Source of the DNA: Candidatus Altimarinota bacterium
GTDB lineage: Bacteria > Patescibacteriota > Gracilibacteria > UBA1369
Reading direction: 5' to 3'
DNA length: 32,000 bases
NCBI GenBank assembly: GCA_041659405.1
Contig: JBAZYK010000004.1
Coordinates: 60,001-92,000, forward strand
A program made the position numbers and the translations under genes. The stretch's first letter is position 1; every line of letters starts with the position of its first letter. Under the pieces are notes generated by a model. The model made no database searches. It was not told the DNA's origin and saw nothing but the letters and a program-made list of their open reading frames with translations. This document shows, piece after piece, positions 11,837 through 28,333 of this stretch.

Positions 11837-11974
11837 ATGGAATATAACAAAATCGTTCTGCCGCCTCTTCAAACCAAAGAAGAATTTTCAGATGAACTGG
11901 AAGCTGCAGAACGTGATTGGCAAAAAAACGGAGGCCTTACTCTAAAGAAAATATCGCAAAAATATAAACTTTAA
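11837..11974 (+). CDS. Small hypothetical ORF (45 aa, MEYNKIVLPPLQTKEEFSDELEAAERDWQKNGGLTLKKISQKYKL)
   Basis: ATG at 11837 and TAA at 11972-11974, found by hand translation (below the ORF-track cutoff). It fills the gap between the SLH gene and the convergent paralog, overlapping that paralog's stop by 4 nt. No recognisable family. Confidence 0.25.
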   Translation: MEYNKIVLPPLQTKEEFSDELEAAERDWQKNGGLTLKKISQKYKL

Positions 11975-13659
11975 TAAATCAGTTTTAAATAGCAACTGTT
12001 GCAATAAACAGGCCTTTCATCGGCATAAGTTGTCTGTATTTTTGTTTTGCATTGATGACAATTCCGTTCCAAAAGTCTGCGGGGATTCAATTGCCCTTCC
12101 CTGGTTTTATGCCTGCAATCAGAGCATTTTCGTGGGATAGGAAGCTGCAATTTACGATAGAATTTTAATTCTTGAGGGATGATTTTATAGTTTTTACCGC
12201 AATCTTCGCACGCCAAAATTTCCTGAGTAATCGAGTCCGGAACTGTCTGAATTTGATCGGGGATTGCGATTTTAGAAGGTTGATATTCCTTTAAATCCGG
12301 CTCAACCCAATGCAATCCTTTTGCTAAAGTGGCGTTTTTATCGAGTGGAAAATAATCCTGTGCGATGGTTTCGTTATAGGCAAAAGGGCTTATTTGAGAG
12401 GGGAAAAAGTCGCCCCATTCCTCCGCGCTCACACCATCCGCCGTGTGCTGGCTTTTCCGCATCTGCTCAATGATTTTTGGCACAAGCTTATTGTATTCCT
12501 CCTCGGAATATTGCTTGTTCAAAATGCAAAATTTCTTATGTTTAAGGCCAACACAACCAAAACAATGGTCGGAATAAAAAGTTTCAAAACTATAATAAAC
12601 ATCATGGATATTCCAACTGTGAATTACATTAAAACAATTGAATGCATCTACGGCGCTCATGCAATTATAAAGAAGTTCCCCTTTTGAATAATTGATATCT
12701 TGGCAGTCCTTAGCGCCAGCCGGAATATTCCAGCAATAAGCACAATCTTCAATTCCATCCGCATGGTAGCAATGGTCGGAATTTTTAGAGTTTCTTAAAT
12801 AATCTCCGCTGCAATTTTCACAATTAACCATTTGGCTGGCCACATGAGGAAACGGGGCAAAGAAATCTTTAGTTTTTAGTTCCATTTTTTGCAATTCCCC
12901 GCGTCCGGATTGCAGGTTTTTTAAAAAGTCTTCATATTCACTTTTCGAAACCGGCTGATTAAAAATGTGATATTGCTTGTTCCTTAAGCCAAAACAACCA
13001 ATACAATTTTGGCAACCCCTGCAATCGTTACAAAAATAAAGATCAGAACTGTTCCCGGAATCTTTACAGAAAATCGATCCATACAAATTGTCACATTCAA
13101 CGCATTCATAGCAAAGTTCGCAGCGTGAACAGCCGTAACAATCAACGCAATCACGCGAAAAATTTGTCCAAAAACAATAATGGCAACTTTCACTATAGCC
13201 ACCCGAAACGCACATGTAAGAATTCTTAAAAGCGATGGAATAAGGGCAAAAATCACTATTTTCACTCTTGTCCGAAACCATCATCGCAAAATGCGGAACC
13301 GCTTTTAAAAGCTCATCAAATTGCGCAAAAAATGGCTTGCTCAAGTCGTAATCTTGCCCGTATTGCATGGGGTCCCAGTCGTCACTCCACCACGCTTTTG
13401 ATTCATAAACTTTATAAGGCGAATTAGCCGGATAAAAAGAGATAATATCTTTATTGGTTAAGTCACATTTTCTTTTATAAAAAGTCCGTTCATTGCGAAA
13501 ACTTAAGCGCCTCTGTTGCCTGCAATCAGGGCACATCTTTAATAGCAGCGGATATTTTTTGCCATTAAAAATTGGCGCAATTCTTTCAAAAAAATCCAAA
13601 TCTTTTTGTGAAAGCTCAAAATTTTTGTGACACTCTTTGCACTCAGCAATCACAGGCAA
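11971..13659 (-). CDS. Cys-rich double-zinc-ribbon repeat protein, paralog 1 of 7 (uncharacterised family)
   Basis: 562 aa with no signal peptide. N-terminal CKECHKNF...FFERI...CPDCRQQRRLSFRNERTFYKRKCD. Duplicated motif GCFGLRNKQYHIFNQPVSKSEYE and GCVGLKHKKFCILNKQYSEEEYNKLVPKIIEQM. C-terminal CEDCGKNYKIIPQELKFYRKLQLPIPRKCSDCRH...RNCHQC...VYCNSCY. The start lies 13 nt after the ATPase stop. Confidence 0.9.
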   Translation of the reverse strand: MPVIAECKECHKNFELSQKDLDFFERIAPIFNGKKYPLLLKMCPDCRQQRRLSFRNERTFYKRKCDLTNKDIISFYPANSPYKVYESKAWWSDDWDPMQYGQDYDLSKPFFAQFDELLKAVPHFAMMVSDKSENSDFCPYSIAFKNSYMCVSGGYSESCHYCFWTNFSRDCVDCYGCSRCELCYECVECDNLYGSIFCKDSGNSSDLYFCNDCRGCQNCIGCFGLRNKQYHIFNQPVSKSEYEDFLKNLQSGRGELQKMELKTKDFFAPFPHVASQMVNCENCSGDYLRNSKNSDHCYHADGIEDCAYCWNIPAGAKDCQDINYSKGELLYNCMSAVDAFNCFNVIHSWNIHDVYYSFETFYSDHCFGCVGLKHKKFCILNKQYSEEEYNKLVPKIIEQMRKSQHTADGVSAEEWGDFFPSQISPFAYNETIAQDYFPLDKNATLAKGLHWVEPDLKEYQPSKIAIPDQIQTVPDSITQEILACEDCGKNYKIIPQELKFYRKLQLPIPRKCSDCRHKTREGQLNPRRLLERNCHQCKTKIQTTYADERPVYCNSCYLKLIY

Positions 13660-13672
13660 GATAATAAATAAA

Positions 13673-15910
13673 TTAAATCAGCGGCACCTCAAAATCTTCC
13701 GCCTGTTGAATCACGTTGTTGGTCTGCGGCAAAGGTTCATCCAGCTTTCCTTCATCCCAACGTTTCAAATTTTCTTCAACCTTTTCACGAGGGTTGCAAT
13801 ACTTTTTGCGTGAAGCTTCAATAATTTGTCTGGTGTAATCAACTTCCGGAAATTTCATATCCAGAGTTCGCCCGGAAAAGGCTTCTGTAAGCTCTCCATT
13901 GATTGACATTTTTAAATAAAATTCACGAACGCCAAGGTTAATAATATCGCGAATATTGAAAATTGGCGTGTATTCACCTTCCAGAATCACCGCATCTTCC
14001 GCTCCAACTCTAAAACTAATCATGGAACCGACGTTACCAAAAACCGTTTTACGAATCATCTCACTCAGCTGCCCAATATATTGATGCGCAATGGTCATGC
14101 ACAAGCGATATTTACGGGCTTCGGACATGATTTCGGAAAAGGTATCTGTGGCAAAGTTTTGGAATTCATCCACATAGAAATAAAAATCTTTGCGATCTTC
14201 TTCGCGCATATCCGCGCGGGACATCGCCGCCTGATAAATTTTTGTGATAATCATCGAACCGATCAACTGCGCGTTTTCCTCACCCAGCAGACCTTTAGAG
14301 ACCTTCATCAAAAGGATTTTTTGACCGTCCATAATATCGCGAATATTAAAACTGTTCTTCGGCTGGCCGATAATATTACGAATCATATTTGTGGAAACCA
14401 GCTGTCCAACTTTATTGAGCAGTGGAGTAATGGCTTCAGAATCGAACTTTTCACTCCATCCGGCAAATTCATTTACCCAGAAATTTTTCACCACCGAATC
14501 CTCGATCCTGGACACAATCGACTGACGATAATTCTTATCCGAAAGCATTTTTAAAATCGAAAGCACAGTCGTGTTTGGCGAGTCCAGAAGCGCCAAAGTC
14601 ACATAACGCAAAACGTGTTCCAGACGGTCTGACCAGTTATTTCCAAACAGTTTTTTAAAGATTTGAATAAAACCAATTGTAATCTGCATTTTGTATTTTT
14701 CGTCGACTTTTTCCAATGGATTAAAAGCGATGGGGAACTCCGTATCGGCAGGATCAAAATAAATTACATCATTGATGCGATTTTCCGGAATCATGCGTAA
14801 AATGTTGTCTACAAGGTCTCCGTGCGGATCAAGCACGCAAATTCCCTTACCGGAATGAATATCCGAATGGATCAAAAGTTCCAAAGCTTTCGATTTGCCA
14901 ACACCGCTTTTCCCCACAACGTACAAATGTCTGCGGCGATCTTCACGCTTCAAGCCAAATTTTTGAAAATTGTTATGATAATTCGTAATTCCAAACATGG
15001 AAATGTCATCACCATGGGTCGGTAAATCTTTTGGAGGTTCGTGTTTTTTGGCTAACACATGCACAACATGAGGCACGTGATCGGCATTCGGCAAATGGAA
15101 AAAAGTTGCCAATTCATGAGTGCTTACCATTCCCGGATTGGTCATATGTCGCTTCTTGTACTCATTCAAAAACGACTGTCCGCTTTTTACGCGCTCCATT
15201 TCAAAACCATTCGCGTCGGTTTTGTTGAATTGATAAAAGGCTTTTGCAAGCGCCTGGAGTGTTCTGTCAGCCTCGGATTCTTCTGTCGAAACAGCACCAA
15301 TTCGAATTTGAATTTCAAAAGGTTCGTGCTCTGTTTTATGCACAAAAGACTCATTTTCTTCTTTGAAATAGGTTTTTTTATCCTTCAAACGAACGTAATT
15401 CTTAAGTCTGAAGTTCCGTCTAAAATTGTTAAATTTCATCTTCCATCTGCGCACAAAATGATATTTCCAGTTGTCGTCTTTTGGTGAAACCAAAATCTGG
15501 ATCCAGGAATAATCCTGGCGTTTCATCTTGGAAATAACCGCAAAAACACCGGAAAGAGAGTCATTTTCAAAATGACTGTAATCCACAAAAGGATAAATAT
15601 CGCTCATTCTAAAGCTCAAACTCGTTCCTTTTAGAACGTGCTTGGTTGGATCATAAAATTCGGTGTAATCTTTATAAGGACGGATTTCACAGTCCGGAAA
15701 AGTCGCATAGAGTAGACCTTCAATCAATTTTACATTGCCGGATTCGCAGCCAATAAAAAAGTAGGTGTATTCATTATACCCCAGCATTTCAAACGAAAAA
15801 TGGCCATGGTGAGCCGATTTATGCAGGTTATCCAAAAAATTCAGGAAGAGACCTTCTTTTTTTGGATTATCCGGTGTTCCCTGCGGTATGACAACATGTA
15901 AATATTCCAT
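13673..15910 (-). CDS. VirD4/TraD/TraG-like (type IV coupling-protein-like) P-loop ATPase, soluble form
   Basis: 745 aa. Walker A LYVVGKSGVGKSKALE, Walker B-like DFYFYVDEFQNF, and a TraG/TraD C-terminal-type motif ARKYRLCMTIAHQYIGQL. There is no hydrophobic N-terminal segment. No other T4SS genes are present in the window. Confidence 0.75.
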   Translation of the reverse strand: MEYLHVVIPQGTPDNPKKEGLFLNFLDNLHKSAHHGHFSFEMLGYNEYTYFFIGCESGNVKLIEGLLYATFPDCEIRPYKDYTEFYDPTKHVLKGTSLSFRMSDIYPFVDYSHFENDSLSGVFAVISKMKRQDYSWIQILVSPKDDNWKYHFVRRWKMKFNNFRRNFRLKNYVRLKDKKTYFKEENESFVHKTEHEPFEIQIRIGAVSTEESEADRTLQALAKAFYQFNKTDANGFEMERVKSGQSFLNEYKKRHMTNPGMVSTHELATFFHLPNADHVPHVVHVLAKKHEPPKDLPTHGDDISMFGITNYHNNFQKFGLKREDRRRHLYVVGKSGVGKSKALELLIHSDIHSGKGICVLDPHGDLVDNILRMIPENRINDVIYFDPADTEFPIAFNPLEKVDEKYKMQITIGFIQIFKKLFGNNWSDRLEHVLRYVTLALLDSPNTTVLSILKMLSDKNYRQSIVSRIEDSVVKNFWVNEFAGWSEKFDSEAITPLLNKVGQLVSTNMIRNIIGQPKNSFNIRDIMDGQKILLMKVSKGLLGEENAQLIGSMIITKIYQAAMSRADMREEDRKDFYFYVDEFQNFATDTFSEIMSEARKYRLCMTIAHQYIGQLSEMIRKTVFGNVGSMISFRVGAEDAVILEGEYTPIFNIRDIINLGVREFYLKMSINGELTEAFSGRTLDMKFPEVDYTRQIIEASRKKYCNPREKVEENLKRWDEGKLDEPLPQTNNVIQQAEDFEVPLI

Positions 15911-16062
15911 TGCTATAGCTGCTATTCAGAGTTTAATTATAGCAGGAAAACGCCTAAAATGCAACCGTCAAGTGGCCTGCCCTGAGGCAAAAACGGATCT
16001 AAATCATCTGATCAACAAAAATTTAGCAAAAATTTATGATTTGTTAATGTGCTTAGTGTATT

Positions 16063-16131
16063 TTGATATTGTTTCAATAAAACAACATATATGATAAGAT
16101 ATACGGTGGAATATATAATCTATCATATATG
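16063..16131 (+). promoter_or_regulatory. Putative promoter and inverted-repeat operator of the Phd/RelE operon
   Basis: TTGATA at 16063-16068 is followed about 17-18 nt later by an AT-rich -10-like catatat. An inverted repeat catatatgataagat (16086-16100) / atctatcatatatg (16118-16131) gives 14 bp with one bulged A and overlaps the -10 region and the start codon. Confidence 0.45.
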
Positions 16132-16377
16132 AAATCAATAATTACCACTACCCAGGTGCAACAAAAAATTGGCAAAATATCGGAAGAAATAGTGGAAAAC
16201 AGCTATGTCGTCACCAACAGGGGAATGGCAAAAATTGTCATGCTCCCATATTTTGATGGTTGTGATGATTTTATCGATGATTACATGGAAGAATTCGAGA
16301 TACTTAAAAACAGAACAAAATTGCAAAAAGAACTTAAGGAATCACTTAAGTCCGGTAAAAGCTCTCTCCAAATATGA
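16129..16377 (+). CDS. Type II antitoxin, Phd/YefM-like
   Basis: 82 aa. The N-terminal pattern MKSIITTTQVQQKIGKISEEIVENSYVVTNRGMAKIVMLPY fits the Phd/YefM fold signature. The stop overlaps the downstream toxin start (ATGA at 16374-16377). Confidence 0.7.
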   Translation: MKSIITTTQVQQKIGKISEEIVENSYVVTNRGMAKIVMLPYFDGCDDFIDDYMEEFEILKNRTKLQKELKESLKSGKSSLQI

Positions 16378-16643
16378 ACACTTTTGTTTTTACAAAAAGC
16401 GCCCAGAAGCAGTTTTTAAGCATTTCATCTTTGGCTCAAACCCAAATAAAAGCAAAACTTGGACTGCTTAAAAATTATCCGGACATTATAAAAATAATGA
16501 AGCCCCTTCATAATTTGGAACCGGCCACACATCGCTTAAGAATCGGCGCTTATCGATTATTGCTTTGCCTAAAATCAAGCCATCAAAATGACCAAGAGTT
16601 TTGGATCCTCAAAATCGGACATCGAAAAGATGTTTATAAATAG
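16374..16643 (+). CDS. Type II toxin, RelE/ParE superfamily
   Basis: 89 aa with a C-terminal HRLRIGAYRLLLCL...FWILKIGHRKDVYK typical of RelE/ParE. It is translationally coupled to the upstream antitoxin. Confidence 0.75.
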   Translation: MNTFVFTKSAQKQFLSISSLAQTQIKAKLGLLKNYPDIIKIMKPLHNLEPATHRLRIGAYRLLLCLKSSHQNDQEFWILKIGHRKDVYK

Positions 16644-16664
16644 TTACTTTTAACTCGAAGAAAT

Positions 16665-18356
16665 TTAATAAACCGCTTCCAAATAACACTTTTCGCAATA
16701 AATAATTTCGGGCCTTTCCGGCGCATAAGTTGTTTTCAAATCCACGCCACATTTTGCGCAATTTCTATTCCAAAGTTTGCGAGGATTTATTAAAGCTTTT
16801 CGGGAATAATGCCTGCAGTCAGGGCAAAGTTTTGGCACAGGAACGCCCAATTTTCTATATAATTCCAATTCCTGGGAAATAACTTTGTAAGGATTGCCAT
16901 CTTTTTCGCAGATAAGCGCCGAGTTTAAAATATCATCATTAATTTCTTTGATTGTGCCCTTATCATTTAGTGCAAAAGTTTTTTGAGCAGCGATTTTTGG
17001 CTTAAGATAGTCATTCCAGTTAAACCCCTTGGCAATTGCCTCTTCCCGACTTAGTGGAAAATATTCCTGAGCCAACGTGTCATTATAGCCATAAGGCGAC
17101 ATTTGTTGCGGGTAAAATTCTCCCCACTCACCATTTTTTTTCATGTGTTCAATAATTTTTGGTAACAGTTCCTCGTATTGTTCTTTGGAATATTGCCTGT
17201 TCAAAATGCAATACTGCTTATGTCTAAGCCCAATACAGCCAAATAAATTCTGGGAACTAAAACAATAATCGCTATAAAATAAATCACTACATCCCAGGGA
17301 ACATTTAATACAAAATTTGGAATTATTTGTTAGGTATACGCCAACACATCCATACAAAAAAGTGGAATCCATGCCTGAGTTAAAGCAATCTTGGCTGTTT
17401 TGCATCATGCCGTCCCAAACATACTTAAGCCCTTCCGACATCATGACATCAAAACAAAATTTGCAGTTTTTTGATTGCATAATGTAGTCCCCAACGCAAT
17501 CTTCAGAAGCCAAAAGATGTGAATATAGCCGCGGTATTTTTTTTGAAATTTCCGAAACTTTTTCTTTAGTTTTTTTAATGTTTTCGTTTGAAAAAACAAA
17601 AGTTTTCATAAACTCCTGATACTCTTCTTTTGTTTTCTGCTCATTGAAAATGCAATATTGTTTATGCCTAAGGCCTACGCATCCAAAACAATCCGTACAA
17701 CTCTGACAATCATCACAGAAAAAACATTCATTTAGATTTTGGCTGTTCATAGACCAAAAACTGCGATAAGAGTTGGAAACTTTTACACATTCATAAGATA
17801 ATTCACATTCAAAACACCAAAACATATCCATGCAGTCCCGACTGGTTAGGCCAAACGTGTTGCAGTAATGACAATTTTCGGCTTGTTCGCTGTTAAAACA
17901 AAGATAACAATTTTTAAGATCATTAGTGTCATTGCAGTATTCGCTGGTTTCATTATTGCGATTTTGCAGGTTGATCGAAGGGACTTTTTTGAGTAGCTCC
18001 TCGAATTGGTCAAAAAATGGCCTGTTAAAGTCAAAATCTTTTCCATAAGTTAAAGGATCCCACTTGTCCGACCACCAGACAGCCTGATCATAAACCGGAT
18101 TTTTAAAAGTTGGAGGATAAACCGAAATAATATCCTTACCCGAAAAATCACATTTGCGCTTATATAAAACCCTTTCATTCCTAAAAGCCGTCAGGCGCTG
18201 CATTCTGCATTTGGGACAAATAACCGGCGCTGGCAATATATATTTTACGCCTTTAATAACAGGAGAAATCTTATCGTAAAATTCCAAATCTTCATTAGCG
18301 ATTTCAAAACTTTTCTGACAAATTTTGCAGTTTTTTATTTCTGACATATAGCCCAT
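16665..18356 (-). CDS. Cys-rich double-zinc-ribbon repeat protein, paralog 2 of 7
   Basis: 563 aa. CKICQKSFEI...FYDKISP...CPKCRMQRLTAFRNERVLYKRKCD; GCVGLRHKQYCIFNEQKTKEEYQ and GCIGLRHKQYCILNRQYSKEQYEELLPKIIEHM; C-terminal ...LCPDCRHY...RNCAKCG...IIYCEKCYLEAVY. The first C-terminal knuckle is CEKD instead of CxxC. Confidence 0.9.
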   Translation of the reverse strand: MGYMSEIKNCKICQKSFEIANEDLEFYDKISPVIKGVKYILPAPVICPKCRMQRLTAFRNERVLYKRKCDFSGKDIISVYPPTFKNPVYDQAVWWSDKWDPLTYGKDFDFNRPFFDQFEELLKKVPSINLQNRNNETSEYCNDTNDLKNCYLCFNSEQAENCHYCNTFGLTSRDCMDMFWCFECELSYECVKVSNSYRSFWSMNSQNLNECFFCDDCQSCTDCFGCVGLRHKQYCIFNEQKTKEEYQEFMKTFVFSNENIKKTKEKVSEISKKIPRLYSHLLASEDCVGDYIMQSKNCKFCFDVMMSEGLKYVWDGMMQNSQDCFNSGMDSTFLYGCVGVYLTNNSKFCIKCSLGCSDLFYSDYCFSSQNLFGCIGLRHKQYCILNRQYSKEQYEELLPKIIEHMKKNGEWGEFYPQQMSPYGYNDTLAQEYFPLSREEAIAKGFNWNDYLKPKIAAQKTFALNDKGTIKEINDDILNSALICEKDGNPYKVISQELELYRKLGVPVPKLCPDCRHYSRKALINPRKLWNRNCAKCGVDLKTTYAPERPEIIYCEKCYLEAVY

Positions 18357-18404
18357 AAAATACGGTCGAATTCTGAAACTTTATCGCCACATTTGCAAGG
18401 GGTT

Positions 18405-20054: not shown

Positions 20055-20085
20055 AAGTGATAATAAAGATTTTCAAAATGATAAC

Positions 20086-20150
20086 CCAATAAACCCGTTT
20101 TGGATAGCACTTTTCACAAAAAATTTAGAAGATTTTAATTCTGGAATATT
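20086..20150 (-). pseudogene. Relic of the 3' end of an eighth paralog (decayed ...CEKCY..VY tail)
   Basis: The minus-strand reading of 20086-20125 gives F C E K C Y P K R V Y W, against the canonical Y C E K C Y L (D/E) A V Y stop. About 27 of 38 nt are identical to the 3' end of paralog 3 (18405-18442) by hand alignment. A PE...-like continuation runs to about 20150. There is no ORF, and the former stop now reads TGG. Confidence 0.5.
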
Positions 20151-20233
20151 AAGCTTGGTTAAAAGCCATGTTCTTGATATTTTATTTCATAACATTCATC
20201 ATATATATGAATTTAATTAATTTAACTAATTTT

Positions 20234-20479
20234 ATGTCAGTATTTACTTTGAAACTTTTCAACACAGGGCAAATAACCCTGCCTAAAGCATGGCGCGAAA
20301 AATTCACGACAAAGTTGTTTCTGGCAAAAGAAACCCCTGAAGGTTTATTGATCCAGCCAATCGAAAAGAATGAACTGGTCTATTTTGAAAATAAAGAAAG
20401 TTTTGGCCTGTATTGCGAAAAAGGCCTGCCAGTCGACGATATTATTTCAACCATCAAAAAAATCCATGGAGCAGATTGA
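20234..20479 (+). CDS. AbrB/MazE (SpoVT-AbrB) family DNA-binding protein or antitoxin-like protein, with no adjacent toxin
   Basis: 81 aa from the internal ATG at 20234 (MSVFTLKLFNTGQITLPKAWREKF...), which fits a swapped-hairpin AbrB-type motif. The longer ORF from 20168 adds an implausible Phe/Ile-rich leader. Confidence 0.6.
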   Translation: MSVFTLKLFNTGQITLPKAWREKFTTKLFLAKETPEGLLIQPIEKNELVYFENKESFGLYCEKGLPVDDIISTIKKIHGAD

Positions 20480-20503
20480 GAAATGAAAGGCCTACAAAAA
20501 ATT

Positions 20504-22240
20504 CTAATAAACCGCTTCCAGATAACATTTTTCACAATAGACGATTTTCCCCCGCTTAGCGGGGGACCCCGCTGCGGCGGTGGCTGGCCTTTCCGGCGCA
20601 TAAGAAGTCTGAATTTCTGCTCCACATTTTGCACATGCACGTTTCCAAAGATGCAGGGGGTTGCGTTTGCTCATCCTTTGTTTATGCCTGCAATCAGGGC
20701 AAAGATGAGGCAAAGGGATATTCCCTTTTTTATAAAATGCCAATTCCTGTTTGATAATTCGATAATTTTTATCACAGCCATCACAGCTCAGAATTGCCTG
20801 CAGTAAGTCATCCCGAACTTCAGCGACGTTATCAGGGATCTGAATTTTTGGTCCGGCATATTTGTTTGATAAATCCTCTTCTTGAAAACCAAGTCCAAGC
20901 TTCAAAATTTGCTCTTTTGTGAGAGGAAATTGCTCGTTTGCGACCGTTTCATTATAACTAAATTCAGAAATATTCATCGGGAAAAATTCACCGAAGTCGC
21001 CACTATTCGATCCGGAAACACTTATTTTCTTCATTTGTTCGATAATGCGCGGCACAATTTTTTCATATTCTTCTTTGGAATATTGTTTGTTCAAGATGCA
21101 ATACTGCTTATGCCTAAGCCCTACGCAGCCAAAGCAGTTTTGACTGCTAAAGCATCCAACGCAATAAATCAAATCACTTGTTCCAGACCAGCATTGAATG
21201 CAAAAAAGATCATGTTTTGCGCCTAATGCCGTATTGATTGATTCATAGACAAGCTCTGCATCGCGCCCAACCGTGCTCACATCCATATTGTCTTTGGAAT
21301 TACGCCAAACGTGTTCGCTGTATTTACAGTCCTCCGCATCATGGGCATGAAAACATTCTTCGCAATTTTTGCTTTGCTGAATGTAGTCACCGGAACAATT
21401 TTCGGCCTTCAAAAATTGGGCATAGCGATGCGGAAATTTCAATAATAACTTTTCAAATTCAAGTTTATTTTTAGATAAATTGGAATAAGAACCATCCAAG
21501 TATTTTCCCTTGAGAATTTCATACTCTTCTTTTGTATATTGTTTGTTAAAAATGCAGTATTCTTTTTGGCGAAGATTCACGCAAAAAAGACAATTTTTGC
21601 ATCCGATACAATCATTCAAAAAAGCGCTATCGGAACAACCGTTACAATTTTGTGACCACTTCAAATTATAACAGTTATAGCAATTATCAACTTCATAACA
21701 TTGCTGTGACTCATGTGAAAAAGATGAGTCAACGCAGTCGGTACATTTCTGCAGCCAATAGCCATAAAGACAGTCTTCATTGTTGCTGCTTTCAAAAACC
21801 AGATAGCAGTTTTTGCAATTGGCGATCAAATTACAATAATCCGAATTTTCATTATTTTCACTTTTGATATTCATTTGTGGAACCTCGTGCCAAAGCTCAG
21901 CGAATTGCTCAAAAAACGGCCTATTAAAATCAAAATCCTTACCAAATTCAGTGGCATCCCAAGTATCTTTCCACCATTCTTTATGATCATAGACTTTATA
22001 TTTTTTGTCGGGACTATACATCGAAATCAGCTGCTTTCCCGTTAAATCACATTTACGATTATAAAGTTTTCGTTCGTTTCTAAAGGCTAACCTCCGCTGT
22101 CTTCTGCAGTCAGGGCAAAGAGTCGGCGAGGGGATTTGATATTTTTTGCCACCAAAAACAGGCGAGATTTTTTCATAAAAATTCAAGTCATTATCCGTAA
22201 TTTCGAACTGAGTTTTACACTGACGACAGTTTTTTAACAT
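20504..22240 (-). CDS. Cys-rich double-zinc-ribbon repeat protein, paralog 4 of 7 (carries a 13-codon GC-rich insertion near the C-terminus)
   Basis: 578 aa. CRQCKTQFEI...FYEKISP...CPDCRRQRRLAFRNERKLYNRKCD; CLFCVNLRQKEYCIFNKQYTKEEYE and GCVGLRHKQYCILNKQYSKEEYEKIVPRIIEQM. The C-terminal ...SYAPERPATAAAGSPAKRGKIVYCEKCYLEAVY corresponds to ...YAPERPEIIYCEKCYLEAVY in paralog 2. Confidence 0.9.
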   Translation of the reverse strand: MLKNCRQCKTQFEITDNDLNFYEKISPVFGGKKYQIPSPTLCPDCRRQRRLAFRNERKLYNRKCDLTGKQLISMYSPDKKYKVYDHKEWWKDTWDATEFGKDFDFNRPFFEQFAELWHEVPQMNIKSENNENSDYCNLIANCKNCYLVFESSNNEDCLYGYWLQKCTDCVDSSFSHESQQCYEVDNCYNCYNLKWSQNCNGCSDSAFLNDCIGCKNCLFCVNLRQKEYCIFNKQYTKEEYEILKGKYLDGSYSNLSKNKLEFEKLLLKFPHRYAQFLKAENCSGDYIQQSKNCEECFHAHDAEDCKYSEHVWRNSKDNMDVSTVGRDAELVYESINTALGAKHDLFCIQCWSGTSDLIYCVGCFSSQNCFGCVGLRHKQYCILNKQYSKEEYEKIVPRIIEQMKKISVSGSNSGDFGEFFPMNISEFSYNETVANEQFPLTKEQILKLGLGFQEEDLSNKYAGPKIQIPDNVAEVRDDLLQAILSCDGCDKNYRIIKQELAFYKKGNIPLPHLCPDCRHKQRMSKRNPLHLWKRACAKCGAEIQTSYAPERPATAAAGSPAKRGKIVYCEKCYLEAVY

Positions 22241-22252
22241 AATTCAGAGCTT

Positions 22253-23905
22253 TTAATATACTTCCTTTTCATAACATTTTTCGCAGTATACAACTTCCGG
22301 GCGATCGGGCGAATATGTGGTTTTAATTTCCGCACCACATTTTGCGCAATTTCTGGTCCAAAGTTTGCGTGGATTTCGTAAGTCAAAACGCGCCTTATAT
22401 CTGCAATTAAAGCACTTTAAAGGCACCGGGATATTCATTTTTTTATAAAGTTTTAATTCCTGACTAACCAATTTGTAATTTTTCCCGCAGCATTCACAGG
22501 TTAAAATTTTATTGGCAAAACTTTCATCAACATTGGAAATTTTTTCCGGAATTACAATTTTTGCACCCTGATATTTTGTGATGCTTTCCTCATCTTTCCA
22601 CTTAAACCCTTTTTGCAGGATTTGCTCTTTGCTAAGCGGATAATACTCATTTGCAACGGTCTCATTATAAGCAAAAGGCGAAAGTTGTGCCGGGAAAAAT
22701 TGTCCCCATTCTCCTGTTTCTTTCATATGTTCAATAATACGCGCACTCAATTTTTCATATTCTTCTTTGGAGTATTGTTTATTGAAAATACAATACTGTT
22801 TTCGGCGCAGACCAATGCAGCCAAACAGGTCTCCCGATCCGGCAAAACAGTAATAACAATGGGTTAAATTTTTAATATTATTACCGCAATAAGCGCTGAA
22901 TTTTACGTTATAAAAGCCGTTTCCGCAGAGCTGGTTTTCGTAACCAAGTTCAGCCGGCAAGCCCCAGGCATAACAATCGTAACAATCCTTGGCGCGATGA
23001 AACCAGACGCACCATTTGCAATCTTCCAGATAGGTGGAGTCATAACATTCTTCTGAATTTTTTGAAAAGAAAACGTGATCACCAGTCACATTTTCATTGC
23101 TGATTCCGGCATAATATTTATGCGGAATTGATTTTTTTAACGCATAAAATTTCTCACGGGCAGCCTCAAAAGAAGCTCTATCTTTAAGTAATTCCTGAAC
23201 TTTTTTGAAATATTCTTCTTTGGAGTATGGCTTATTAAAAATATAATATTCCTTGTTTTTTAGCGACACACAGCCAAAACAGTTCGAGCATCCTTTGCAG
23301 TCATACAGAAAATATGAATCTCGGCAATTCTGACAAATCTGACTGTGCTGCAGATTGTAGCAGTTATAACTATCAATACATTCATAGCAAAGCTCCGAAT
23401 CAAAAATAAAAAAACAGTCAGAAACATCCTTGCAGCGCTGAATATAGGTTGTATAAAAACAATCTTCACTGTCGCTCGCCGCAAAAATCAAATAACAATT
23501 TTTATTTCCGGAACTTAAATGTGTATAGTCGCAATTCACATTATCATCGTGCATGTTGATGGAAATAACCGGAACCTCCAACATCATCTCTTTGAATTGT
23601 TCAAAAAACGGCCTGTTAAAGTCAAAATCACGGCCATATTTCATTGGATCCCATTTGTCACTCCACCAACACTTATGACAATAAACTTTCACCGATTTAT
23701 CCGGCGAATAAATCGAAATTATCTGTGAGCCGCAAAGATCACATTTACGGTTATAAAGTTTGCGCTCATTACGCCAGGTTAAGCGCCTTTGCATGCGACA
23801 ATCAGGGCAAAAATTTGGCTGCGGAACCTGCATTTTTGTATAAAAAGCCTGATCCTTATCTGTGATTTCAAATGATCCGCCACATTGTTTGCAGGATTTA
23901 TTCAT
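22253..23905 (-). CDS. Cys-rich double-zinc-ribbon repeat protein, paralog 5 of 7 (both N-terminal ribbons fully liganded)
   Basis: 550 aa with 42 Cys by hand count. N-terminal CKQCGGSFEI...FYTKMQVPQPNFCPDCRMQRRLTWRNERKLYNRKCDLCG...VYCHKCWW. C-terminal CECCGKNYKLVSQELKLYKKMNIPVPLKCFNCRY...RNCAKCG...VYCEKCY. Confidence 0.9.
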   Translation of the reverse strand: MNKSCKQCGGSFEITDKDQAFYTKMQVPQPNFCPDCRMQRRLTWRNERKLYNRKCDLCGSQIISIYSPDKSVKVYCHKCWWSDKWDPMKYGRDFDFNRPFFEQFKEMMLEVPVISINMHDDNVNCDYTHLSSGNKNCYLIFAASDSEDCFYTTYIQRCKDVSDCFFIFDSELCYECIDSYNCYNLQHSQICQNCRDSYFLYDCKGCSNCFGCVSLKNKEYYIFNKPYSKEEYFKKVQELLKDRASFEAAREKFYALKKSIPHKYYAGISNENVTGDHVFFSKNSEECYDSTYLEDCKWCVWFHRAKDCYDCYAWGLPAELGYENQLCGNGFYNVKFSAYCGNNIKNLTHCYYCFAGSGDLFGCIGLRRKQYCIFNKQYSKEEYEKLSARIIEHMKETGEWGQFFPAQLSPFAYNETVANEYYPLSKEQILQKGFKWKDEESITKYQGAKIVIPEKISNVDESFANKILTCECCGKNYKLVSQELKLYKKMNIPVPLKCFNCRYKARFDLRNPRKLWTRNCAKCGAEIKTTYSPDRPEVVYCEKCYEKEVY

Positions 23906-23931
23906 GATTCAAAATCTTTTTAGAGTAAAAA

Positions 23932-25587
23932 TTAATAAACTTCTTTTAAATAACAGCTTTCGCAATAGACGATTTCTGGCCTATTTGGGGCGTAACTCGT
24001 CGTTATTGCTACGCCGCACTTTGCACAATTGCGTTCCCAAAGCTTGCGTGGATTTCTAGCCTCCATGCGTTCCAAGTGTCTGCATTCATGACAAATATTT
24101 GGCACGGGAACGTTAATTTTGCGATAAAGCTGTAATTCCTGAGGAATTATTTTGTAATTTTTTGAACATTTATCGCAGACCAGAATTTGTTTTGTTATTT
24201 CATTTGGAGTTTCCTGAATATTTTTTGAAATAATGACTTTTGATCCCTGATATTTACCTGAAAGATCTTCATTTTTCCAGTTTGCTCCTATCTTTTTTGC
24301 CTGTTCAGGTACTAATGGAAAATAATCCTGAGCCAAAGTCTCGTTATAACTAAAAACAGAAATGCTCATCGGGAAAAATTGCCCCCATTCGTCCGTTTTT
24401 CGCATGTGTTCAATGATTCGCGGCACTAATTTTTCGTAATCTTCTTTGGAGTATTGTTTATTCAAAATACAATATTCATTCTTTTTTAGGCCTACGCAGC
24501 CAAAAATATTTTTTGAATTAAAGCAAAGACTATTGTAATAATCAAAACTATCAAACCAGCAAATATCGTTAAAGGCATGCATATAATTACTTTCGCTACC
24601 CACGGCTTCATAAACAAGTTCGGAATTGTCATCATTGATAACGTCATAAGAATCCTTCATATTGGTTGCATTGCAAACAAATTTGCAATCCTGGAGATTT
24701 TTGCCTTCGTAACAATTCAGGGAATTTTTTGAATTAAAAAGCGCGTCACCTGTACAGTTTTCTAAGTTTACGCCGTTTATATATTTCCTTATTGCCTGCT
24801 TTTTTAGCTCATTAAATAGAGCTTTACTCGCTTCGAAGTTTTTAAGCAATTCGGGAAGTTTTTTGCGATATTCTTCTTCACTATACTTTTTATTCTCGAT
24901 ATAAAATTCAGCATTATTAAGATTGCAGCAGGCAAAACAGTTTTTACAGCCCTTTAAATTAAAGCCTAAAATACAGTCACTGCAGTTATTTGAATTTTGT
25001 AGATATTGTGAGTTGTAGCAATTTTCGCAGTCCACTAGTTCATAACAAAGTTCACCTGTATTAAGGTTTGAGCATTCAGCACAATCCTTCATTTTAAAAC
25101 TGCGATTGGAATAGTACGAATTTTCACAATATCCACATGTAAATAAAAGATAAGAATTTTTATTACGAAATCCAAAGTTACAATATTCACTGTTTTCGAT
25201 TTCTTTATTGATGAGTGCAATTCGCGGTACGACTTTTAAAAGTTCGGCAAATTGCTCAAAAAATGGCCTATTAAAATCAAAATCACGGCCATAATCCAAG
25301 GGATTCCATTGGTCTCCCCACCAGGCTTCGCGGCCATAAACTTGTACAGGTTTGTCGGGACTATACATTGAAATGATTTCTTTCCCTGTTAAATCGCATT
25401 TTCGATGATAGAGTTTTCTTTCATTGCGAAATGCTAAACGCCTCTGCATGCGGCAATCAGGACAAAATACCGGTGCGGGTATTTGGTATTTTTTACCAGC
25501 AAAAATTGGAGAGATTTTTTCGTAAAATTTCGAATCCTCATCAGTGATTTCAAACGCGTTTCCGCATTGTCTACAGTTTTTAGTCAT
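23932..25587 (-). CDS. Cys-rich double-zinc-ribbon repeat protein, paralog 6 of 7
   Basis: 551 aa. CRQCGNAFEI...FYEKISP...CPDCRMQRRLAFRNERKLYHRKCD; CFACCNLNNAEFYIENKKYSEEEYRKK and GCVGLKKNEYCILNKQYSKEDYEKLVPRIIEHM; C-terminal CDKCSKNYKIIPQELQLYRKINVPVPNICHECRH...RNCAKCG...VYCESCYLKEVY. Confidence 0.9.
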   Translation of the reverse strand: MTKNCRQCGNAFEITDEDSKFYEKISPIFAGKKYQIPAPVFCPDCRMQRRLAFRNERKLYHRKCDLTGKEIISMYSPDKPVQVYGREAWWGDQWNPLDYGRDFDFNRPFFEQFAELLKVVPRIALINKEIENSEYCNFGFRNKNSYLLFTCGYCENSYYSNRSFKMKDCAECSNLNTGELCYELVDCENCYNSQYLQNSNNCSDCILGFNLKGCKNCFACCNLNNAEFYIENKKYSEEEYRKKLPELLKNFEASKALFNELKKQAIRKYINGVNLENCTGDALFNSKNSLNCYEGKNLQDCKFVCNATNMKDSYDVINDDNSELVYEAVGSESNYMHAFNDICWFDSFDYYNSLCFNSKNIFGCVGLKKNEYCILNKQYSKEDYEKLVPRIIEHMRKTDEWGQFFPMSISVFSYNETLAQDYFPLVPEQAKKIGANWKNEDLSGKYQGSKVIISKNIQETPNEITKQILVCDKCSKNYKIIPQELQLYRKINVPVPNICHECRHLERMEARNPRKLWERNCAKCGVAITTSYAPNRPEIVYCESCYLKEVY

Positions 25588-25870
25588 ACGTAGGCGAGTT
25601 GCAATTTATTAAAATTATTTTAAACTCACAGCTTACATTTATACCACACTGTATTACTTTGTAAACTTAATGGAAAAAGAAAGACAAAGCAATGTACCAT
25701 AATAGCCCTTACATAAGCCTTTACAGCTGGATCTAATTGATGTATATTATCTGTAGAAACACTTTTACAACAAGACCGCCAAAGGCGATCCGCGCCTGCC
25801 CTAAGCAGGCATAGCAGTTAACTCCTGCAAAGCAGGAACAAAATTATTAATTCATATAATTCCAAGTTGA

Positions 25871-26650
25871 ATGTTCTACCCCGATTTTGATCTTTTAGGC
25901 CTAACTGAAACCGAAGGCAAAGTTTATATGGCAACGCTGGAGCTTGGAGGAGGCTACGTTAGCGCGTTAGCCCGCCGAGCCAAACTTCCACGCGTAAACT
26001 GTTACCACACGCTTGAAAACCTGGTTAAAAAGGGCCTGGTGAGCTTTATTACGAAAGATAAGGTTAGGTATTACTCTGCTGAACCGCCGCAAACCATTGT
26101 TCATGCTCTTGAAGAAAAAAGTAAATACGCCCGAAAAATTCTTCCTGAGCTCCTTTCCATCACCAATACGCTCGCCTTTAAGCCAAAAATTAAATATTTT
26201 GAAGGAATGGAAGGAATTAAAAACATTTTGGAAGATGTCTTAACGATGAAAGAAGACCCTTCAACAGCCAAAAAAGAAATGCTCGGTTATTCCAACTTGA
26301 AAGCCTTTGGCGAGATTTTGGATGATTTTATTCCCAATTACGCCGCCGAAAAAATGAAGCGCAACATTAAAACCCGCATTATTTGCCCCAGTAGTTCGGA
26401 AGCATTTTCTTACGTGAAAAATCATTATCCCAAAAATTTCCCACCGGAACTTGTTGAGATTTTATTCGTAAATCCAAAAGAATTCTGGTTCGAACATCAG
26501 ATCATGATTTACAACAACAAAGTGGCAGTTATCTCTTTAAATAAAGAAGAACTGGTTGGGATGATTTTTGAAAGTCCGGTCTATGCGCGCTCGCAAACGG
26601 CAATTTTTAATCTGGCCTGGTTGGGCGCCAGCAGCTTTATTGCGCTGTGA
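25871..26650 (+). CDS. TrmB-family winged-helix transcriptional regulator
   Basis: 259 aa. N-terminal LGLTETEGKVYMATLELGGGYVSALARRAKLPRVNCYHTLENLVKKGLVSFI matches the TrmB-type wHTH pattern. A C-terminal effector-like domain is present. Confidence 0.75.
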   Translation: MFYPDFDLLGLTETEGKVYMATLELGGGYVSALARRAKLPRVNCYHTLENLVKKGLVSFITKDKVRYYSAEPPQTIVHALEEKSKYARKILPELLSITNTLAFKPKIKYFEGMEGIKNILEDVLTMKEDPSTAKKEMLGYSNLKAFGEILDDFIPNYAAEKMKRNIKTRIICPSSSEAFSYVKNHYPKNFPPELVEILFVNPKEFWFEHQIMIYNNKVAVISLNKEELVGMIFESPVYARSQTAIFNLAWLGASSFIAL

Positions 26651-26683
26651 TATAGCCGAATTTCACAAAGTGCGGCGAGCGGC

Positions 26684-28333
26684 TTAATAAATTTCCTTCA
26701 AATAACATTCTTCACAAAGCACTGTTTCCGGCCTTTTCGGAGCGTAAGTTGACTGAAGTTTTTTTGAACAGTTGCTGCAAATTCTTTCAAAAAGTTGTCG
26801 TGGATTACGAATCTGCATCCTTTGTTTATGCCTGCACTCTGAGCAAATTCTTGGCACAGGAATATCCATTTTACGATAAAACTGCAATTCTTGATTAACA
26901 ATTTTGAAATTCTTATGACAATCCAAACAGAGCAAAATTTCGTTAACCATTGCATCTGTAAAATCTTTAATTTGATCCGGAATTTTCAACCTTTGAGGTT
27001 GTGCAGTTTTTTCATCTTCATCCTTCCACTGGAATTTTTCTTTTAGTGCCTGCTCTTTTGTCAGAGGATAATAAGCAGAAGAAGTGGACTCATTATACCC
27101 AAAACAGGCTAAATCCTTTGGCAAAAACTTTCCCCATTCCCCATTTTTTTTCATGTGCTCAACAATTTTCGCATACAATTTTTCATAATCTTCTTTTGAA
27201 TATTTTTTATTTAAAATACAGTATTGCTGATTCTTAAGCCCTGTACAGCCCAAAAGATTTTGGGAATTTTGGATAAAATCGCAATATTGAATATTAGATG
27301 AATCCGCAATGAAAAATGAAAATTGAATATTATAACATTTCATAACAGACACACACTGATACAAAAGCTCAGCATCATCACCCAAAAGGCAGGACTGAAA
27401 ACAATCTTTTTCCTTGCTGGCGAAGATAATATTACGCAAATCCTGGCTTTCACTTACATCAAAACAGTTCTTACAATTTTTACTGTTTTTAATGTAATCA
27501 CCGCTGCAATCCTGGCAGGAAACAGTATGAATATATTTAACTTTTCGCTTCTTTAGTAAATCCAAAAAATCCCCAAAATTCTTTTGCTGCTGCACATAAG
27601 ACCCATTTATCAGCTCCTGCTTTTTTTGCAGATATTCTTCTTTTGAATATTTTTGATTATTGATGCAATAGGATTGATTAGCCAAATTTGTGCACAAAAT
27701 ACATTCGCTGCAACCAATACAGTCACTAATAAAATAACAATTATTACAGTTTTTTGAATCAAAAGTAACCCGGCAACCATATGAATTTAGAGTGTCTCCC
27801 ATCACATAACAAAGCTCGTTAAAATTGCTGTAATCAAGGTCAAGTGAGCCCACGTTGCTCATGCAAAGCGTGCCAAACAAACAGTTTTGATTAAAATCAC
27901 CACCAAAAATTAAATAACTGTCTTTATTTCCATAAGCACTATTGCAGTAATCGCTATTAACAGCATTTATATTTGTTAATGCCAGTCTTGGTACTTGCAA
28001 TTGTAATTCTTTAAACTGTTCAAAAAACGGCCTGTTAAAGTCAAAATCGCGACCATAAGAAAGCGCGTCCCATTTGTCACCGTACCAATAATCGCTTTTA
28101 TAAACCTTATATGGCTTGTCAGACGAATAGATAGAAATAATTGTCTCACCGGTTGCATCACATTTTCTTGTATACAGTGCCCGTTCATTTCTAAAACAAA
28201 GTCTTTGCTTTTGATCACATTCGAAGCATAATTCTTGTGGTTCAAATCCGAATTTTTTAAAACAATCCCAATCTTCCTGCTCGTAAGAAGAAGGCTTCTG
28301 GCACTCTTTGCAATTAAAAGTTACAATCGACAT
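26684..28333 (-). CDS. Cys-rich double-zinc-ribbon repeat protein, paralog 7 of 7 (most divergent)
   Basis: 549 aa from the internal ATG at 28333 (MSIVTFNCKECQKP...); the longer ORF adds 17 unconserved residues. CFECDQKQRLCFRNERALYTRKCD; CILCTNLANQSYCINNQKYSKEEY and GCTGLKNQQYCILNKKYSKEDYEKLYAKIVEHM; C-terminal CLDCHKNFKIVNQELQFYRKMDIPVPRICSECRH...RICSNCS...VLCEECYLKEIY. Confidence 0.9.
   Translation of the reverse strand: MSIVTFNCKECQKPSSYEQEDWDCFKKFGFEPQELCFECDQKQRLCFRNERALYTRKCDATGETIISIYSSDKPYKVYKSDYWYGDKWDALSYGRDFDFNRPFFEQFKELQLQVPRLALTNINAVNSDYCNSAYGNKDSYLIFGGDFNQNCLFGTLCMSNVGSLDLDYSNFNELCYVMGDTLNSYGCRVTFDSKNCNNCYFISDCIGCSECILCTNLANQSYCINNQKYSKEEYLQKKQELINGSYVQQQKNFGDFLDLLKKRKVKYIHTVSCQDCSGDYIKNSKNCKNCFDVSESQDLRNIIFASKEKDCFQSCLLGDDAELLYQCVSVMKCYNIQFSFFIADSSNIQYCDFIQNSQNLLGCTGLKNQQYCILNKKYSKEDYEKLYAKIVEHMKKNGEWGKFLPKDLACFGYNESTSSAYYPLTKEQALKEKFQWKDEDEKTAQPQRLKIPDQIKDFTDAMVNEILLCLDCHKNFKIVNQELQFYRKMDIPVPRICSECRHKQRMQIRNPRQLFERICSNCSKKLQSTYAPKRPETVLCEECYLKEIY

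Follow-up and report, generated by a model that had tools for sequence, protein, structure and literature searches.

Tandem paralogs of a cysteine-rich protein family form a conserved cassette with a TrmB-like regulator and a soluble VirB4/VirD4-type ATPase in Patescibacteria

Introduction

ATPases of the FtsK/HerA/VirB4/VirD4 clade are hexameric translocases that act on DNA or protein, often with the help of a docking partner, as in TraD-TraM, HerA-NurA, and SIR2-HerA. In the case of F-plasmid TraD, it is the C-terminal tail that binds TraM. Patescibacteria, or candidate phyla radiation (CPR) bacteria, represent a substantial part of bacterial diversity; most are uncultured, and their genomes measure about 1 Mb. 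Here, we analyzed a 32,000-nucleotide (nt) stretch of DNA from Candidatus Altimarinota bacterium (Gracilibacteria; assembly GCA_041659405.1, contig JBAZYK010000004.1, positions 60,001 to 92,000 of the forward strand), hereafter called the window. It carries seven tandem genes for cysteine-rich paralogs, which we refer to as the F family, together with an ATPase of this clade and a TrmB-like regulator. In 2,918 Patescibacteria genomes, 5,713 VirD4-like homologues of type IV coupling proteins (T4CPs) have been counted, only 148 of them near virB4, and exaptation was left possible (PMC12102498).

Several described proteins offer points of comparison for the F family. Metallothioneins are small, contain 15-30% Cys, and have little regular secondary structure. 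The antifreeze protein of Tenebrio molitor (1ezg) is a secreted, disulfide-bonded beta-helix built on a 12-residue TCTxSxxCxxAx repeat. Described members of the zf_Tbcl/TIGR04272 class are small proteins that stand alone and have no assigned function, and TIGR04272-type CxxC-x17-CxxC domains of Methanosarcina mazei small proteins bind zinc, as measured by inductively coupled plasma mass spectrometry (PMC12704099). Last, Patescibacteria harbor arrays of 2-11 strongly diverged tandem genes for VirB2 pilins, small secreted proteins encoded near virB4 and linked to type IV secretion-related machinery (PMC12102498).

Results

The F genes belong to a conserved cassette

The F genes are part of a conserved chromosomal cassette made up of a TrmB-like regulator, 1-11 F paralogs, and a soluble ATPase that combines a DUF8128 domain with a VirB4/VirD4-type domain. 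This was shown with a sample of 77 loci, each taken with 10 kb on either side and together holding 271 F genes, from which all non-overlapping open reading frames (ORFs) of at least 100 amino acids (aa), that is, 1,110 ORFs, were clustered without bias. A cluster of TrmB-like proteins of about 263 aa was present at 32 of the 77 loci (45 genes) and a cluster of ATPases of about 750 aa at 21 (26 genes), while the next commonest neighbor occurred at 6 (6 genes). The usual order was a divergent regulator, a run of F genes, and the ATPase gene at the 3' end of the array on the same strand as F. The regulator was divergent from the adjoining F gene in 25 cases out of 45, and the ATPase gene adjoined a same-strand F gene in 17 out of 26. 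Of the 43 loci with at least three copies, 34 had one or both partners, as compared with 3 of the 18 single-copy loci. The same regulator-F(n)-ATPase cassette was seen in all four ATPase-bearing megabase contigs examined, three reached via ATPase homologues and one (CP064962.1) via an F homologue; there, it lay among housekeeping genes (enolase, purine synthesis, BacA), with gaps between F and ATPase genes down to 1 nt. The preliminary description, made from the sequence of the window alone, had suggested, as one option, that the coupling-protein-like ATPase serves the paralogs, and this synteny backs a functional connection: since genes kept close to each other on one strand across genomes usually function jointly, a shared function of F and the ATPase can be inferred.

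On the minus strand of the window, the order is F7, regulator (plus strand), F6, F5, F4, F3, F2, ATPase, and F1 (Table 1). Neighboring genes are separated by 12-48 nt, with the exception of the places that have taken up toxin-antitoxin genes. Scans of the array for promoters (58 found, 50.6 ± 8.2 in shuffled sequence) and terminators (18 found, 14.4 ± 3.7 in shuffled sequence) gave numbers not above expectation. By its profile matches, the regulator is assigned to the TrmB family: it scored 46.5 bits with PF01978 (cut-off 25.6), and its profile matched TrmB (3qph, E = 2.5e-17) and, over its full length (residues 5-245), TrmBL2 (E about 1e-8) among PDB sequences. No convincing palindrome was seen between the regulator and paralog genes.

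Toxin-antitoxin genes and insertion sequence (IS) elements seem to settle repeatedly in the F arrays. In the window, paralog 2 and the ATPase gene are 754 nt apart, a space filled by an antitoxin/toxin ORF pair on the strand opposite to the array, the two ORFs overlapping by 4 nt, and a small MazE/AbrB-like ORF lies in the 449 nt that separate paralogs 4 and 3. Elsewhere, arrays have HicAB, PIN-domain genes, and IS transposases (DDE_Tnp_1, rve) inside or beside them, as at 1226-4862 of the CP064962.1 locus (L078) and 17942-18310 of locus L080. GC content is lower over positions 12001-28000 of the window (0.35-0.405) than over positions 1-12000 (0.36-0.46).

Seven old paralogs of a large family

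The seven minus-strand ORFs had been reported as colinear, and the ORF list bore this out. The proteins align over their full length with pairwise identities of 38.7-50.0%, and a family hidden Markov model (HMM) spans each of them end to end (E = 1e-202 to 1e-278). The ORF of paralog 7 extends to a TTG at 28384, and the ATG at 28333 fits the other copies best in the alignment. Each paralog has 35-42 Cys (6.4-7.6%) and a mass of 64-67 kDa; the 42 Cys in 550 residues counted previously are those of paralog 5. The proteins had been described as lacking transmembrane segments and signal peptides, and we reached the same result: the highest 19-residue Kyte-Doolittle mean was 0.77-1.32, pointing to no transmembrane helix, and neither hydropathy nor inspection of the sequences disclosed a signal-like hydrophobic h-region at any of the seven N-termini. 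A CxxC knuckle lies within about 12 residues of the N-terminus in every paralog except paralog 3.

DNA identity among the seven copies is 60-82% and is confined to short blocks, from which we conclude that they are old paralogs and no assembly duplications. An 82-nt repeat occurs 12 times, twice in each of five genes and once in each of the other two, with a spacing of about 430-455 nt inside a gene; it is the DNA-level trace of the internal GCxGL..K.Y.I.N..YSKEEY motifs described below. Besides the seven copies, which stand, the preliminary description had listed a relic, for which the case is weaker than was implied. The peptide FCEKCYPKRVY resembles the C-terminus of the family, YCEKCYLxxVY, and aligns to HMM positions 548-559 with an E-value of 0.45, which is not significant alone; its position is suggestive of an eighth-copy remnant. 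Nothing of an eighth copy beyond these 11 residues was found by tblastn and HMM searches of the six-frame translated window. The MazE/AbrB-like ORF lies beside the remnant, and its insertion may have destroyed a possible eighth copy.

F proteins are abundant in public databases. A word-indexed search returned at least 7,895 relatives, the best 120 of which all measure 527-605 aa and cover 94-100% of the query, and an exhaustive HMM search of 1.84 billion representatives at 50% identity gave 6,129 clusters at E ≤ 1e-3 and 2,474 at E ≤ 1e-30. Source records name them "hypothetical protein" or "zinc-ribbon domain containing protein". Among contigs with one genome per species, at least 585 stretches encode F relatives, in Peribacteria, Peregrini-, Gracili-, Abawaca-, Nomura-, Staskawicz-, Pacei-, Giovannoni-, Jorgensen-, Sungi-, and Saccharibacteria. 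The family is thus nearly restricted to Patescibacteria; the few F-bearing contigs with non-CPR labels are suspected binning errors. As 2.9 million viral contigs (IMG/VR) gave one partial match only, at a contig end, a phage origin of the family was rejected. Two database homologues (P0217 and P0235) have extra domains and have lost many ribbon Cys, and might be real fusions or gene-calling artefacts; judged by eye, P0217 has a GNAT acetyltransferase-like N-terminal region and P0235 a C-terminal extension of about 250 residues with a possible winged-helix segment.

Arrays are the habit of the family. The 77 loci hold 1-11 full-length copies each, nearly all on the same strand within a locus, with two or more copies at 54 loci and five or more at 19. 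One 22-kb locus has 11 copies, and one Peribacteria metagenome-assembled genome has at least 15 over two contigs (L021 and L051). The earlier remark that such copy numbers are a large investment for a small genome is supported. Counterparts of paralog 5 in other genomes (P0002-P0005) are 65-69% identical to it, against 39-50% for its neighbors in the window; paralogs 7, 3, and 6 reach 56-59% elsewhere (58-59% for paralog 7, at L060 and L021) and paralog 1 reaches 51%. Because several counterparts in other genomes are closer than the window neighbors, the paralog lineages are best read as old and retained, with no recent burst.

Architecture and cysteine pattern

Profile-profile comparison (hhalign) brought out two nested internal duplications. 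Homology between residues 4-81 and 469-546 (E = 2.7e-30) defines end modules Z and Z', and homology between residues 115-240 and 264-391 (E = 1.7e-36) defines halves B and B' of a predicted solenoid; hence the pseudo-symmetric architecture Z-B-B'-Z'. The basic end modules carry a positive net charge (+3 and +7, the latter being the median of the C-terminal module) and the acidic solenoid halves a negative one (-5 and -3). Ribbon modules at both ends had been anticipated, in agreement with the homology of Z and Z' and with their zf_Tbcl-type matches (see below). It had also been stated that the termini and two internal motifs are conserved while the cores diverge. The GCxGL..K.Y.I.N..YSKEEY motif pair is real, being a product of the B/B' duplication, but the best-conserved stretches across paralogs are residues 51-125 and 376-425 rather than the extreme termini. 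Invariant positions other than Cys are F101, Q103, N224, N375, Y383, N414, E483, R502, and R506.

The distribution of Cys was analyzed in 239 family members. Cys of the B region sit on a strict period-3 register, with an autocorrelation of 0.68 at lag 3 and a second peak of 0.61 at lag 12. Register positions without Cys are often Ser (seven such positions in paralog 5), and the autocorrelation of Cys plus Ser is 0.71 at lag 3 family-wide. Half 1 ends in C203-x2-C206-x2-C209-x2-C212, which is nearly invariant (78-96% Cys), followed by a (Y/F)xIxNxxYSKEEY cap and a helix; in half 2, the cap is kept (C363 and C372 at 94-96%) and the ladder is weaker. As for the end modules, the first N-terminal site, N1 (C5/C8/C33/C36), is complete in 81% of members and in six of the seven window copies, and the last C-terminal site, C2 (C520/C523/C541/C544, individually 92-97% conserved), in 92% of members and all seven window copies. 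The cap1 site is complete in 61% of members. Based on these patterns, F proteins most likely carry up to six structural Cys4 metal sites per chain, with zinc as the favored metal.

Predicted fold and family assignment

An AlphaFold2 model of paralog 5, built from a 72-sequence alignment, was compact, with a mean predicted local distance difference test score (pLDDT) of 83.9 and a predicted template modeling score of 0.84. DSSP assigned it short strands about 9-12 residues apart and then, over residues 186-222, single-residue bridges at each third residue, a pattern that, as expected, would fit a narrow solenoid. Foldseek comparison of the model with PDB and BFVD gave no match at E ≤ 1e-3. The weak top PDB matches were all left-handed beta-helices, namely gamma-carbonic anhydrase, LpxD, and LpxA (E ≥ 0.07, TM-score 0.08-0.19). 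The F core resembles such hexapeptide beta-helices in being a predicted narrow solenoid of short repeats, without significant sequence or structure match to them, and no Hexapep Pfam match to the paralogs was found at E ≤ 1.

Sequence profiles reached the ends of the proteins only. The preliminary description had been unable to assign the paralogs to a named family, and the position is unchanged: Pfam and NCBIfam match just the terminal ribbons (PF13451, PF23477, TIGR04272), with one copy above a curated cut-off, and profile and structure searches gave no full-length match to a characterized family. Paralog 5 scored 31.6 bits with PF23477 (cut-off 27, passed) and 23.6 bits with PF13451 (cut-off 24, slightly short), the other six paralogs scored 18-22 bits on the zf_Tbcl/zf_Tbcl_2 ribbon profiles, under cut-off, and TIGR04272 gave at most 26.3 bits (cut-off 36). 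The end modules share with these families paired CxxC knuckles and the signature F-x-(I/F)-x4-(E/D)-x2-FY-x-K ... P-x-C-x2-CR. We therefore regard them as apparent members of, or very close relatives to, the zf_Tbcl/TIGR04272 ribbon class. Unlike its stand-alone proteins, F proteins have two such modules on either side of a stretch of about 380 residues made up of predicted solenoid and helices, and each module is trailed by a second, often degenerate ribbon.

The core of about 380 residues was covered by none of the Pfam, NCBIfam, PADLOC, functional PHROG, PDB, or BFVD entries searched. PADLOC-DB v2, searched with two paralogs, yielded zero families at E ≤ 0.1, and PHROGs gave E about 1e-3 at best, to a family of unknown function. 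Against PDB sequences, the family profile matched LIM/CRP zinc fingers only, at the last ribbon (E = 0.004-0.07); as the match is confined to that ribbon and to generic Cys spacing, a relationship with LIM/CRP proteins was discarded. The Tenebrio antifreeze protein matched at E = 0.42 with a 7-sequence profile, a match that was gone with 72 sequences, and it is kept as an analogy only. It shares with the F core a 12-residue superperiod and small Cys/Ser residues in period-3 register, whereas F proteins have neither its TCT ice-binding face nor a signal peptide. F proteins also differ from metallothionein-like stores by their size, their lower Cys content, and their confidently folded model.

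The literature was equally silent. The "cysteine-rich proteins" of Peribacteria (PMC4736985) are large, measuring about 1,650 aa; they have signal peptides, are exported, and belong to a different family. A preprint on CPR protein families (10.1101/335083) brings up CAP-domain proteins only. No description of the family or of the cassette was found in the searchable literature under PF13451, PF23477, TIGR04272, DUF8128, and Patescibacteria zinc-ribbon or tandem-paralog topics. Since neither the database entries searched nor any literature account matches the core, the architecture, or the cassette, we judge the full architecture and the cassette to lie outside known kinds. On the strength of the model, a Cys/Ser-ladder solenoid flanked by zinc ribbons may be a new structural solution without counterpart among solved structures.

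The linked ATPase

The ATPase passed the Pfam cut-offs of PF02534 (44.0 bits, cut-off 20.1), PF10412 (34.2, cut-off 20.5), and PF12696 (26.6, cut-off 22). Its residues 1-300 form a soluble alpha/beta domain with DUF8128 (PF26449, precomputed) at the N-terminus, and its Walker motifs G-K-S-G-x-G-K-S and D-E-F-Q are invariant. No transmembrane segment was found, the highest 19-residue Kyte-Doolittle mean being 1.02. Identity over the best 120 clusters is 60-84%. An AlphaFold2 model (pLDDT 72.8) matched TrwK/VirB4 over its full length (Foldseek E = 5e-12), and its ATPase half matched TrwB (E = 1e-8, TM-score 0.55 on TrwB), DotL, Cag-beta, and HerA (2e-8 to 3.5e-4); the TrwB profile match was 2e-5. 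A phage family of unknown function, phrog_5156 (824-position profile), was matched at E = 2e-71, and PADLOC gave weak mad8 and HerA matches only. The C-terminal tail is acidic and disordered (pLDDT <50 from residue 718) and ends in F-E-x-P-L-I, in which F740 and P743 are invariant and E741 and L744 near-invariant among 43 homologues; by analogy, it looks like a short docking motif.

Like T4CPs (TrwB, TraD, VirD4, DotL/IcmO), this protein has a P-loop domain with an all-alpha domain, matches PF02534 and PF10412, superposes on TrwB and DotL, and ends in a TraD-like acidic tail motif. Unlike them, it has no transmembrane anchor, carries DUF8128, and is nearer VirB4/TrwK in full-length fold. Its partners are an array of paralogs, with no relaxosome, known effectors, relaxase, or channel genes of a type IV secretion system (T4SS) nearby; neither channel genes (VirB4, VirB6, VirB8) nor a relaxase recurred near arrays at the 77 loci or in the Pfam-annotated megabase contexts. 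The protein is therefore a member of the VirB4/VirD4/HerA clade that departs from T4CPs in membrane anchor and T4SS context. With HerA-NurA, SIR2-HerA, and DUF4297-HerA, it has in common that a soluble hexameric FtsK/HerA-clade ATPase is encoded beside a presumed non-ATPase partner. Unlike the partners in those machines, F proteins have no recognizable catalytic domain, come as 2-11 paralogs, and are not in PADLOC, and the ATPase is nearer the VirB4/VirD4 branch.

Other features of the window

Table 1. Coordinates of features in the window
Feature	Position	Strand	Description
Paralog 1	11971-13659	-	562 aa; TTG start; directly 3' of ATPase gene
Paralog 2	16665-18356	-	563 aa; CDCC at fifth Cys4 site (first C-terminal ribbon, one ligand swapped)
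Paralog 3	18405-20054	-	549 aa; first N-terminal zinc site (N1) lost, SSTE instead of CCCC
Paralog 4	20504-22240	-	578 aa; Ala/Gly-rich insertion preceding last ribbon strand
Paralog 5	22253-23905	-	550 aa; sole window copy with all six predicted Cys4 sites; modeled copy
Paralog 5, N-terminal basic double zinc-ribbon module (predicted)	23651-23905	-	Residues 1-85; PF13451; net charge +8
Paralog 5, solenoid half 1 (predicted)	23228-23551	-	Residues 119-226; Cys/Ser ladder and CxxCxxCxxC cap C203-C212
Paralog 5, solenoid half 2 (predicted)	22778-23119	-	Residues 263-376; diverged duplicate of half 1
Paralog 5, C-terminal basic double zinc-ribbon module (predicted)	22256-22507	-	Residues 467-550; PF23477, TIGR04272
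Paralog 6	23932-25587	-	551 aa
Paralog 7	26684-28333	-	549 aa from ATG; family HMM E = 1.7e-202
DUF8128 and VirB4/VirD4 (T4CP)/HerA-type P-loop ATPase	13673-15910	-	745 aa; same strand as array; stop 13 nt upstream of paralog 1
ATPase C-terminal tail	13673-13756	-	Residues 718-745
TrmB-like winged-helix regulator	25871-26650	+	259 aa; divergent from paralog 6, convergent with paralog 7
Possible eighth-copy remnant	20089-20121	-	FCEKCYPKRVY, 11 residues; directly upstream of paralog 3
Phd/YefM-like antitoxin	16129-16377	+	PF02604, E = 8e-5, under Pfam cut-off
ParE/RelE-like toxin	16374-16643	+	PF05016, E = 2e-4, under Pfam cut-off
MazE/AbrB-like small ORF	20168-20479	+	PF04014, 23.2 bits, cut-off 24.7
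AAA_14 and DUF4143 ATPase	4409-5803	-	PADLOC candidate defense family PDC-S01, E = 8.6e-156; N-terminal extension of about 90 residues
Surface-type protein	1719-4370	-	
Surface-type protein	5745-8996	+	
Surface-type protein	9091-10725	+	
Surface-type protein	10800-11825	+	SLH domains confirmed (Pfam)
Flanking gene	456-1460	-	
Flanking gene	28466-29908	+	
Flanking gene	30029-31645	+	

Upstream of the array, four large surface-type proteins have similar C-terminal regions. One of them has a long Ala/Gln/Lys-rich low-complexity stretch and another has GDQPPG four times in tandem, and SLH domains were confirmed in one of the four alone. As the divergent ORFs of the AAA_14/DUF4143 ATPase and the second surface-type protein overlap by 59 nt, one of their start codons is probably miscalled. 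The flanks of the window include genes for a XerC/D-type tyrosine recombinase, an extracytoplasmic function-type sigma factor followed by a DUF5667 protein, a dGTPase-like HD phosphohydrolase, and NrdR; flanking genes recur beside arrays elsewhere at no more than 1-5 loci. TGA serves as stop in 3 of 18 window genes and long ORFs are intact under table 11, indicating that the organism uses the standard code despite its Candidatus Gracilibacteria label, Gracilibacteria being known for reading UGA as Gly. The closest relatives of the cassette are found in Abawaca-, Peregrini-, and Peribacteria.

Discussion

We propose, tentatively, that the F paralogs are cytoplasmic multi-zinc clients or adaptors of the linked ATPase, an explanation that we place ahead of the others considered here while holding it well short of established. 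F proteins would reside in the cytoplasm, with several structural Cys4 sites binding zinc, and a set of anciently diverged copies would serve the hexameric ATPase. Docking might take place via parts common to all paralogs (residues 51-125 and 376-425), and/or via binding of the basic end modules to the disordered acidic tail of the ATPase with its F-E-x-P-L motif, and the more variable solenoid surfaces would provide the specificity of each paralog. Since the ribbon modules at both ends are basic, nucleic acid would be the likeliest ligand. More speculatively, the ribbons at both ends might grip nucleic acid and the ATPase act on the complex, in which case the cassette would be a CPR-specific, TrmB-regulated device for handling nucleic acid.

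A more ambitious version of this idea, which we hold as a somewhat more doubtful possibility, is that the regulator-F(n)-ATPase cassette encodes an unrecognized Patescibacteria-wide machine that explains orphan VirD4-like ATPases, a soluble hexamer acting on or through a panel of diverged F proteins. Their fold would then be a new beta-solenoid with an inward stack of Cys, possibly a metal column capped by Cys4 sites that replaces a hydrophobic core.

Several observations weigh against the client/adaptor proposal. The linkage is frequent, not universal, and many single or paired F copies have no ATPase or regulator gene within 10 kb. Sites N2 and C1 are complete in just 28% and 48% of family members, respectively, and paralog 3 lacks N1; some zinc sites must therefore be dispensable, their ligands being lost in many members. 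The solenoid geometry comes from one AlphaFold2 model, in which half 2 has a pLDDT of 56-73. A secretion signal or protein docking would explain the basic charge of the end modules just as well. More generally, the interaction, metal content, localization, and nucleic-acid binding of F proteins are proposed here from sequence, model, and synteny.

An unlikely, though serious, alternative is that F proteins are diversified effectors or adhesins, handed over by the VirD4-like ATPase to a patescibacterial T4SS for secretion or injection, with their ladder Cys oxidizing to disulfides outside the cell. It would account for the linkage with a T4CP-like ATPase, and diverged tandem paralog arrays are typical of host-interaction proteins, those of VirB2 pilins providing a precedent in the same phylum (PMC12102498). 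The Cys/Ser ladder and 12-residue coil recall the secreted Tenebrio beta-helix, and the C-terminal modules are basic, as a translocation signal might be. Yet, this module is predicted to be a folded zinc ribbon rather than a disordered tail, and a tightly folded multi-zinc protein would make an awkward T4SS substrate. F proteins have no apparent signal peptide, the ATPase is without the N-terminal segment that anchors canonical T4CPs in the membrane, and T4SS genes, VirB4 and VirB6 included, do not recur around the arrays. Unlike VirB2 pilins, to which they are unrelated, F proteins are 65-kDa, cytoplasmic-looking proteins with arrays not near virB4, and their paralogs are ancient and slow-evolving, with no rapid turnover. 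In addition, the T4CP homologue of Ca. Southlakia is non-essential for epibiotic growth, whereas its T4SS genes are essential (PMC12102498).

We find it less probable still that the cassette is an immune or conflict system, in which the HerA/VirB4-like ATPase would be the motor and the members of the F array would sense invading DNA or phage proteins, or serve as decoys for them. The ATPase model does match HerA of the SIR2-HerA and DUF4297-HerA complexes (E = 1e-5 to 1e-4), which goes with the weak HerA and mad8 matches in PADLOC and the strong one to phrog_5156. Arrays are dotted with toxin-antitoxin genes and IS elements, and the PDC-S01 candidate defense ATPase of the window is 6 kb off. 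On the other hand, the paralogs match no PADLOC model, no nuclease, NADase, or other effector domain was found, and the F family is essentially absent from viral contigs. Moreover, the ATPase is unusually conserved for a defense gene, and the four megabase contigs place the cassette among housekeeping genes.

That F proteins are a metal, sulfur, or redox reservoir, buffering Zn, Fe, or Cu, storing cysteine, or buffering redox stress, with a capacity that scales with copy number, appears improbable to us. Such a role would suit their high Cys content, the ladder Cys coming on top of as many as six Cys4 sites, and the presence of several copies under a ligand-type regulator; the oxidative-stress defenses of CPR bacteria are described as poorly known (PMC8672522). 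However, Cys are fixed by a period-3 structural register in a 65-kDa folded protein, unlike in metallothioneins, many non-Cys positions are invariant, and neither the long retention of 40-50%-diverged paralogs nor the linkage with a translocase-type ATPase would be expected for a simple store. Finally, the notion, raised at the outset, that the copies are non-coding, or were produced by the collapse or duplication of a contig, is refuted by their divergence (39-50% protein identity, DNA identity in short blocks only), by the intact, fully HMM-matched ORF of every copy, and by like arrays in dozens of independent assemblies, two of them chromosome-scale (CP064962.1, 1.34 Mb; OZ246396.1, "chromosome: 1").

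Public databases already hold F sequences by the thousands, and what is new is the recognized architecture, the array habit, and the conserved partners. The cassette also bears on the VirD4-like homologues recorded away from virB4 in Patescibacteria. A VirD4 search of the published kind would catch the present ATPase, and the cassette would therefore give a context to some of these orphans, of which one subfamily or more gains a concrete set of partners. In small CPR genomes, the F family fills up to about 20 kb, which we take to mean that it must matter to these cells, and the cassette probably marks an undescribed cellular machine.

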